From the IMG/VR virus record IMGVR_UViG_3300035696_000883: a stretch of DNA of 14,336 nt. One strand, given 5' to 3'. The first letter of the stretch is position 1. Each line of letters opens with the position of its first letter. This stretch comes from a virus. Shown here one piece after another: positions 14,245 through 14,335 of this stretch. The notes under the pieces were generated by a model. It made no database searches and was not told the origin of the DNA. It saw only the letters and a list, made by a program, of their open reading frames with translations. The position numbers were made by a program, and so were the translations under genes.

Positions 14245-14335
14245 AGGGGTGAAGGGCAACCCGGTTCGGCCCAGCGGTCTCCAAAACCGCCGCAGCTTCG
14301 GCTCATTGTGGGTTCAAATCCCACCACCCCTGCCA
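14245..14335 (+). tRNA. tRNA with anticodon CCA (Trp-decoding), 91 nt, atypical 17-nt variable arm; genomic CCA end
   Basis: Acceptor AGGGGTG (14245-14251) pairs with CACCCCT (14325-14331), with discriminator G and encoded CCA. D-arm GGGC-AACCCGGTTCG-GCCC. Anticodon arm GCGGT-CTCCAAA-ACCGC, giving U33, anticodon CCA and A37. Variable region CGCAGCTTCGGCTCATT with a small AGC/GCT stem and TTCG loop. T-arm GTGGG-TTCAAAT-CCCAC. The acceptor stem, G73 and anticodon arm are close to bacterial tRNA-Trp (E. coli: AGGGGCG...CCGGU CUCCAAA ACCGG...CGCCCCU G CCA). Confidence 0.75.

Follow-up and report, generated by a model that had tools for sequence, protein, structure and literature searches.

The tRNA-Trp gene and its fold

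The viral DNA stretch IMGVR_UViG_3300035696_000883 from the IMG/VR database, analyzed here over its full length of 14,336 nucleotides (nt; hereafter, the window), carries close to its 3' end a tRNA-Trp gene in which tryptophan identity elements are combined with an enlarged D loop and a long variable (extra) arm. Long extra arms are, in the textbook view, restricted to tRNA-Ser, tRNA-Leu, bacterial tRNA-Tyr and tRNA-Sec. ARAGORN identifies a single tRNA in the window (14245-14335, plus strand; tRNA-Trp, anticodon cca), and the Rfam tRNA family RF00005 aligns with 14245-14332 across model positions 1-71 of 71 (48.8 bits against the gathering score of 29; E = 4.7e-8), placing the surplus nucleotides as an insertion in the variable region. 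The initial annotation, made from the sequence alone, had called a tRNA-Trp with this anticodon, and ARAGORN bears this out; the peculiarities that it listed (91 nt, A1-U72, G73, A8, a D stem of 4 base pairs (bp), an 11-nt D loop and a UUCG-capped variable region of 17 nt) are all present in the sequence.

The gene (14245-14335, plus strand, as are all its parts) is complete, with a 7/5 configuration of the acceptor and T stems. The 5' strand of the acceptor stem, AGGGGUG (14245-14251), pairs with CACCCCU (14325-14331), which is followed by the discriminator base G73 (14332) and an encoded CCA (14333-14335). Position 8 is an A (14252), where U8 is usual, and is followed by A9; the D arm (14254-14272) consists of a 4-bp stem, GGGC/GCCC, and an 11-nt loop, AACCCGGUUCG, enlarged in the class II manner by extra nucleotides after G18-G19, and A26 comes next. 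The anticodon arm (14274-14290), GCGGU-CUCCAAA-ACCGC, has a 5-bp stem and the anticodon at 14281-14283. The variable region (14291-14307), CGCAGCUUCGGCUCAUU, spans 17 nt, namely a C, the stem G(C)AGC/GCUC capped by a UUCG tetraloop, and AUU, the last U of which is able to pair with A15; the T arm, GUGGG-UUCAAAU-CCCAC, occupies 14308-14324. The minimum free energy (MFE) fold is a cloverleaf with a small UUCG-capped extra hairpin, the folding energy by itself being unremarkable (z = -1.16). Thus, in place of the 4-5 nt variable region of class I, the tRNA has 17 nt with a hairpin and fits the class II architecture, i.e. a variable region of at least 10 nt with a stem-loop together with an enlarged D loop.

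An origin of the extra nucleotides in an assembly artefact, which the initial annotation had named as fatal to its reading, is ruled out because six independently assembled contigs (three from ENA, one from Logan and two from JGI) carry the identical 91-nt sequence.

Conservation of the extra arm

Seven variants of this tRNA-Trp were collected by a pattern scan of JGI metagenomes (15 contigs) and IMG/VR, all of them located in tRNA arrays and derived from peat or bog samples. In these variants, the four cloverleaf stems have 99.3% of the cells paired, with seven pairs changed on both sides; none of 500 shuffles matches these values and no slid register comes near them. The 7-bp acceptor stem and the 5-bp T stem are both backed by covariation (at pairs 2-71, 5-68 and 6-67, and at 50-64 and 51-63, respectively), and pair 11-24 of the D stem occurs as GC, AU and CG. 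At pairs 2-71 and 5-68, a single change to a different Watson-Crick pair is seen in each case, and A1-U72, G3-C70, G4-C69, G73, A8 (7/7) and A15 are invariant.

The extra arm is maintained as well. Its stem differs in base pairs among the variants (G(C)AGC/GCUC, GAGC/GCUC, GAC/GUC, UCC/GGA and GAG(U)CC/GGCUC), the cap is nearly always UUCG, and the layout is constant: one unpaired base, the stem-loop, and three or four unpaired bases ending in a U that can pair with the invariant A15. This covariation was taken from separate folds rather than from pair counts, because the MAFFT alignment misses the extra-arm hairpins. The long Gln, Asn and Arg tRNA families described below likewise keep the extra hairpin through pair changes in separate folds. 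The extra arm is a selected module rather than noise.

The tRNA array and its phage

The proteins of the window match phage families, among them phrog_10079, over its full length (E = 6e-111). The window protein encoded at 11608-12801 is present on seven public contigs, three of which, from ENA (24-33 kb; loci L001-L003), reach past the end of the window. On these contigs, the tRNA-Trp is the first gene of a 15-tRNA array that spans 4.5 kb, being followed on the same strand by a gene for a HisRS-like protein of 155 amino acids (aa) and then by 14 more tRNAs. The isotypes after the tRNA-Trp are His, seven Arg, two Asn, two Gln, Met and two Lys. An HNH endonuclease gene lies inside the array, as in every related array. 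Farther downstream, the extended contigs encode an APC-family amino acid permease, a 241-aa TrpRS homologue, a DNA methylase and a methionine aminopeptidase, and the 6.7 kb after the array contain no tRNA. Related arrays sit on contigs of 133-187 kb (IMG/VR and metagenomes), and the gene order tRNA-Trp/compact HisRS/tRNA-His is preserved in diverged phages. The 15 tRNAs within 4.5 kb, the PHROG matches and the IMG/VR relatives identify a phage tRNA array, in agreement with the earlier suggestion of a tRNA-Trp borne by a mobile element, the element being a peat-soil phage that is probably large.

The richness in tryptophan noticed in the neighboring proteins holds across the called genes of the surrounding phage, with 129 Trp in 5510 residues (2.34%). 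The UGG codon is about twice as frequent in these genes as is usual in bacteria, and the array tRNAs cover the most used codons of the phage (AAG, AAC, CGC, ATG, TGG and CAG). The proposal that the tRNA-Trp supplies UGG decoding for Trp-rich phage genes is compatible with these data.

The unusual architecture is not confined to the tRNA-Trp, a fact that the initial annotation overlooked: it recurs in many phage tRNA-Trp genes (see below) and in 5 of the 15 array tRNAs, which are over-long through a tetraloop-capped hairpin in the variable region. Besides the tRNA-Trp (91 nt, AGC-UUCG-GCU), these are tRNA-Gln(CUG) (89 nt, GAGC-GUAAU-GCUC; L001 14544-14632), tRNA-Arg(ACG) (86 nt, CCC-GCAA-GGG; L001 14643-14728), tRNA-Asn(GUU) (86 nt, UCC-GAAA-GGA; L001 14818-14903) and tRNA-Arg(CCU) (88 nt, GCGC-GUAA-GCGC; L001 16906-16993). 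For each of the long Gln, Asn and Arg(ACG) tRNAs, the array also includes a twin of normal length with an identical anticodon.

Some further irregularities were observed in these arrays. The long tRNA-Arg(ACG) has no encoded CCA and abuts the tRNA-Met. One related array (L085) contains both a normal 76-nt tRNA-Trp (4473-4548) and a long one of 88 nt (6488-6575). In another (L089, 351-439), an 89-nt tRNA, to which ARAGORN assigns no isotype, has a mini-hairpin, AGC-GAAA-GCU, inserted in the D loop, so that tetraloop hairpins enter other tRNA loops of these phages, too.

Distribution in viruses and cells

IMG/VR was scanned for Trp anticodon arms separated from the T loop by six or more surplus nucleotides, and 114 listed loci were analyzed; the viral counts in this paragraph refer to the matches listed. 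There are at least 80 distinct long-arm tRNA(CCA) sequences in IMG/VR. Of the 80, 79 have G73, 39 begin with an A-U pair and 26 with a G-U pair; their variable regions measure 11-22 nt, with a mode of 14-15, and the loop is of the GNRA type in 42. Most of the long-arm loci (83/114) contain five or more tRNAs. Other tRNAs of class I isotypes with a long variable region are more common in the long-arm loci (54/555) than in viral loci with a normal tRNA-Trp (19/571; p = 1.6e-5). A longer D loop accompanies the long arm: in the long-arm viral tRNA-Trp, the anticodon lies on average 1.7 nt farther from the 5' end than in those of normal length (p = 6e-19).

The same pattern occurs at only 51 loci in cellular genomes (one genome for each of 185,579 bacterial and archaeal species), and of the 17 Trp-type matches among these, 15 are in arrays. 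The solitary cellular matches represent a separate phenomenon, i.e. class II tRNAs with a CCA anticodon that are either Leu-like, with A73 (L044, L047, L053, L056, L057, L058, L064 and L066), or Ser-like, with G1-C72 (L034, L050, L059, L069 and L071; all with G73 except for U73 in L050). These come from bacterial genomes and metagenome-assembled genomes, several of them from Acidobacteria, and are candidates for the insertion of Leu or Ser at UGG. A long-arm tRNA-Trp of 85 nt was also observed on the 138-kb plasmid p53608_1 of Lactobacillus reuteri ATCC 53608 (L043 7701-7785).

Among the phages in GenBank, a concatenated query of 47 variants detected long-arm tRNA-Trp in Lak megaphages and in the Caulobacter phages CcrColossus and CcrPW; the window tRNA alone, or one abundant IMG/VR variant, gave no match in this collection. 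CcrColossus and CcrPW, which are cultured, have a long-arm tRNA-Trp of 86 nt (L324 2501-2586, corresponding to NC_019406.1 59240-59325), and the CcrColossus gene is annotated in GenBank plainly as tRNA-Trp.

Amino acid identity

The identity set of bacterial tRNA-Trp comprises the CCA anticodon, G73, A1-U72 and the pairs G2-C71, G3-C70, G4-C69 and G5-C68 (PMC9976931). The window tRNA has the complete acceptor part of this set, as well as C34, C35 and A36 (14281-14283). When compared with Escherichia coli tRNA-Trp, the reference sequence of which was verified against 5,426 genomes, 6 of the 7 acceptor pairs and 15 of the 17 bases of the anticodon arm are identical and G73 is shared, so that the closeness to bacterial tRNA-Trp asserted in the initial annotation holds for both regions. 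The features of the class II isotypes are missing. Leu and Tyr identity need A73, and G1-C72 is absolutely conserved in bacterial tRNA-Ser (PMC9976931); tRNA-Sec is marked by an 8/5 branch, a 6-bp D stem and the anticodon UCA. Instead, the window tRNA combines A1-U72, G73 and CCA with a 7/5 branch and a 4-bp D stem. Global alignment with all tRNAs of the fetched loci, performed as a test of recent derivation from tRNA-Ser, tRNA-Leu or tRNA-Tyr, gave a weak similarity to tRNA-Ser.

Because the bacterial Trp identity set is retained, the tRNA should be charged with Trp by TrpRS and hence read UGG. Altered decoding and non-translational roles had been mentioned in the initial annotation as properties that such tRNAs sometimes have; either is conceivable for the window tRNA, in which the anticodon stem has the normal 5 bp and the identity elements favor Trp over Ser, Leu and Tyr.

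Possible roles of the extra arm

Judged from its sequence and context, the window feature is, with high probability, a functional Trp tRNA of a phage array. It would be a phage-encoded elongator tRNA-Trp(CCA) that is charged with Trp and reads UGG in the Trp-rich phage genes, while the body between the Trp identity elements is built in the class II manner: the D loop is enlarged, and the plan of the extra arm (1 nt, 3-5 bp, a tetraloop and 3 nt) is that of the short arm of bacterial tRNA-Tyr. By setting the phage tRNA apart from the host tRNA-Trp, the arm could allow it to escape tRNA-directed nucleases, stemming from either host defense or phage-induced shut-off, and yet remain usable in translation. 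The explanation as a whole appears reasonably probable, but its last component, nuclease escape, is proposed only tentatively, by analogy. Nuclease escape is favored because there is a precedent for a phage tRNA that evades a defense nuclease via a distinctive variable arm: a distinctive variable loop enables the phage T5 tRNA-Tyr to withstand retron-Eco7, and the variable arm is where Septu cleaves tRNA-Tyr (PMC13096335); phage tRNAs are also altered, as a general trait, in ways that confer resistance to anticodon nucleases (PMC13056530). The facts that any role of the arm has to explain include its conservation, the co-variation with the D loop, the restriction to phage arrays and the presence of normal twins, as well as the richness of the arrays in Arg, Asn, Lys, Gln, His and Trp tRNAs, the embedded HNH gene and the adjoining genes of the RNA repair type (RlaP in the window and Tpt1 in L089). 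Several observations weigh against this explanation. The window tRNA itself has an unusual A8 and a weak extra arm, which forms 3 bp in the MFE fold, or 4 bp if one C is left bulged; some mis-serylation is conceivable because G73, G2-C71 and the long arm partly overlap the Ser identity; and the related phage L088 has an ordinary 76-nt tRNA-Trp with the same acceptor stem at the same position of the array. Given this tRNA and the normal twins, the arm is dispensable for decoding and could be neutral, i.e. a tolerated insertion at the most permissive site of a tRNA that otherwise works as an ordinary tRNA-Trp, with stable small hairpins arising without any benefit in the variable region and other loops of fast-evolving phage arrays. 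The GAAA-capped mini-hairpin in the D loop of the L089 tRNA and the long variable region of about 3% of the class-I-isotype tRNAs even in viral loci picked for a normal tRNA-Trp (among the matches listed) agree with such neutrality, which nevertheless seems unlikely, if by no means negligible, given that five separate tRNA families from diverged phages have retained the hairpin through compensatory changes. Neutrality also fits poorly with the strong enrichment in viruses over cells and the clustering in particular phages (p = 1.6e-5), and with the joint enlargement of the D loop and the arm (p = 6e-19; both among the matches listed), which suggests a co-adapted core. A broader and more speculative view is that large phages keep a parallel tRNA set in which those of class I amino acids, such as Trp, Gln, Asn, Arg and Lys, have been remodeled into class II form, with the cognate identity retained and the arm serving as a 'self' mark. 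Such an arm would hide the tRNAs from nucleases and perhaps show them to phage enzymes (the mini TrpRS, HisRS and RNA repair proteins), providing partly autonomous, attack-proof decoding beside the ordinary twins in one array; this is to be regarded as a rather unlikely possibility.

Overall, the evidence favors nuclease escape, followed by neutral tolerance, with two further possibilities being minor. One of these, in which the arm serves the compact TrpRS of the phage, devoid of much of the C-terminal anticodon-binding domain, as a handle, so that tRNA and enzyme form a phage-private pair, is improbable, notwithstanding some suggestive facts. TrpRS and TyrRS are paralogues, and bacterial TyrRS recognizes the extra arm of tRNA-Tyr. 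The TrpRS homologue of the phage (241 aa), encoded 6.9 kb downstream of the tRNA-Trp, has the HIGH, GEDQ and KMSKS motifs and belongs to a family of at least 120 members in the protein search, all short (187-286 aa), although the IMG/VR search of related loci yielded no close relative; its confident structural model (pLDDT 92) superposes on about two-thirds of bacterial TrpRS (TM score 0.83 when query-normalized and 0.65 when target-normalized). However, the phages L088 and L089, with compact TrpRS of 64% and 56% identity, respectively, have normal 76-nt tRNA-Trp in their arrays, and the long-arm Gln, Asn and Arg tRNAs have no visible partner enzyme; the idea is demoted because three contexts show a normal tRNA-Trp beside the compact enzyme. 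Conversely, CcrColossus, CcrPW and Lak, the phages with long-arm tRNA-Trp, show no TrpRS homologue, being absent from the 25 phage records matched by tblastn with TrpRS, so that there the host TrpRS must accept the long-arm tRNA-Trp, if it is used at all. The charging enzyme is probably the host TrpRS, and possibly the compact phage enzyme also charges the window tRNA-Trp. The other minor possibility, a mistranslator that is recognized by SerRS through its long arm, G73 and G2-C71 and inserts Ser at UGG, as allo-tRNAs and nev-tRNAs do with Ser or Leu, is more improbable still. Himeno and colleagues reportedly found in 1990 that serylation of tRNA-Tyr needed a lengthened arm plus an A73-to-G change. 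SerRS indeed disregards the anticodon and depends on the size of the extra arm, helped by G73 and G2-C71 (PMC9976931), and the nearest non-Trp tRNAs by overall similarity are, weakly, tRNA-Ser; but the arm here, of 3-4 bp, is a short one like that of tRNA-Tyr, no element of the Trp identity set is missing, and A1-U72 is invariant in the family, as opposed to the absolutely conserved G1-C72 of bacterial tRNA-Ser. Among the matches listed, G1-C72 occurs in 4 of the 80 viral long-arm tRNA(CCA) compared with 15 of the 103 of normal length, and replacement of Trp by Ser throughout would be costly because the phage proteome is Trp-rich. Finally, the initial annotation had offered the alternative that this is the tRNA-Trp gene of the host, used as the attachment site (attB/attL) by an element to its left. 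Integration often targets tRNA genes, and a terminator and an AT-rich stretch precede the gene, yet this reading is refuted: the contig runs for more than 8 kb past the tRNA-Trp, with 14 tRNAs and phage-type genes on the same strand, such that phage genes flank it on both sides; the window contains no second copy of the 3' part of the tRNA; no integrase was detected among the proteins scanned; and the synteny of tRNA-Trp, compact HisRS and tRNA-His is kept in diverged phages. The chance that it is nevertheless correct is practically nil.

Comparison with known tRNAs

The window tRNA shares with the class I tRNA encoded by E. coli trpT the CCA anticodon, G73, A1-U72, the 7/5 configuration, the 5-bp anticodon stem and the encoded CCA, but differs in having a 17-nt hairpin variable region (as opposed to 5 nt), an 11-nt D loop (as opposed to 8 nt) and A8 (as opposed to U8), and in being phage-borne. 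With bacterial tRNA-Tyr, it shares the enlarged D loop and the plan of the arm (1 unpaired nt, 3-4 bp, a 3-4-nt loop and 3 unpaired nt), although G73, A1-U72 and CCA replace A73, G1-C72 and GUA, and its own D arm is not close. In the long-arm tRNA-Trp of CcrColossus, 16 of the 20 D-arm bases are those of E. coli tRNA-Tyr, whose extra-arm layout it also shares.

Examples are already known of tRNA arrays in phages, of irregular tRNAs encoded by phages (8/4 tRNA-Ser and tRNA-His) and of class II tRNAs that bear a foreign anticodon (allo-tRNAs and nev-tRNAs). The allo-tRNAs and the phage (8/4) tRNA-Ser and tRNA-His are irregular, with long arms and non-Ser/Leu anticodons (Mukai et al. 2017, PMC5389517). 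They occur in soil bacteria (Acidobacteria), phages and peat metatranscriptomes, in some cases as part of polycistronic transcripts (PMC5389517). The window tRNA resembles the allo-tRNAs in the long extra arm and the non-Ser/Leu anticodon; however, allo-tRNAs have a 12-bp acceptor branch (8/4 or 9/3) and Ser or Ala identity and mistranslate, whereas here the branch is 7/5, with covariation in both the 7-bp acceptor and the 5-bp T stem, and the identity matches the anticodon. The nematode nev-tRNAs (Hamashima et al. 2012, PMC3333845) combine class II architecture with the anticodons of class I amino acids; they are eukaryotic and have Leu identity and are charged with Leu, unlike the window tRNA, in which the identity set matches the anticodon. 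The closest functional parallel comes from phage tRNAs that counteract defense systems, namely T5 tRNA-Tyr acting against retron-Eco7 and PtuAB, T5 tRNA-Lys against PARIS, and T6 tRNA-Tyr against Septu (PMC13096335, PMC13056530). Like these, the window tRNA is phage-encoded and belongs to a tRNA cluster with a homing-type endonuclease gene, and it is the differences from the host tRNA, including those in the variable arm, that confer resistance in T5 and T6. The T5 and T6 cases alter an existing loop or arm or raise the dosage, whereas here any resistance would come from a whole arm added to tRNAs of class I isotypes.

In the literature search, no account emerged of 7/5 tRNAs that belong to class I isotypes and combine cognate identity with a class-II-like arm, nor of their concentration in phages; this is not proof of novelty. 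In function, the gene would be ordinary, a phage tRNA-Trp, but the extra-arm architecture is recurrent and selected and has apparently gone unremarked. In the known exceptions, allo-tRNAs and nev-tRNAs, the tRNA is mischarged, whereas here a class-II-like body is joined to an intact Trp identity, and this architecture is conserved by compensatory evolution and recurs for several class I amino acids in phages while being nearly absent from cells. If the arm protects against tRNA-cleaving immunity or shut-off, it would partly explain, in structural terms, the long-standing puzzle of phage-borne tRNAs and would provide a simple sequence signature of phage tRNAs engaged in nuclease conflict. If TrpRS tolerates, or the compact phage TrpRS prefers, a long-arm tRNA, orthogonal tRNA engineering could draw on these tRNAs as naturally occurring scaffolds. 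The role of the arm is directly testable because two cultured phages, CcrColossus and CcrPW, carry such a tRNA-Trp.

Neighboring genes and signals

Upstream of the tRNA-Trp, an intrinsic terminator, CCCGCC-CAAGAU-GGCGGG with a T run, occupies 14192-14219 (plus strand; L001 12582-12599, offset from the window by +1610), about 25 nt before the tRNA. It ends the upstream transcription unit and coincides with the AT-rich region in which the initial annotation had sought the end of the element. A 5-bp hairpin, CCCAG-UUUUA-CUGGG, follows the terminator at 14223-14237. The segment 13986-14237 ahead of the tRNA forms a compact unit, with a promoter-like TGGACA-18-TATACT (13986-14015), a 40-codon open reading frame (14041-14163) and the terminator, which is a strong one.

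Farther upstream, the plus strand encodes an RlaP/phrog_388 nucleotidyltransferase (7990-8826), of a family linked to RNA repair, homologues of which (33-50% identity) lie near the tRNA arrays of related phages. The plus-strand gene at 5277-7724 is a vault-protein-like gene in a phage; its product of 815 aa contains Vault_3 repeats and a Major Vault Protein shoulder domain, matches Band_7 weakly and has no PHROG family.

Beyond the window, the compact HisRS-like gene between the tRNA-Trp and the tRNA-His (L001 12905-13372; 155 aa as called) starts 180 bp past the window end; its family has at least 120 members of 144-260 aa, including chromosomal copies in Hahella. The APC-family permease gene overlaps the gene of the compact 241-aa TrpRS (together L001 18272-20277), the latter occupying 19552-20277. 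The permease, compact TrpRS and HNH genes co-occur on huge-phage contigs of 100-413 kb, together with genes for IF3_C, ArgRS-like, Tpt1, PARP and M24 peptidase proteins.

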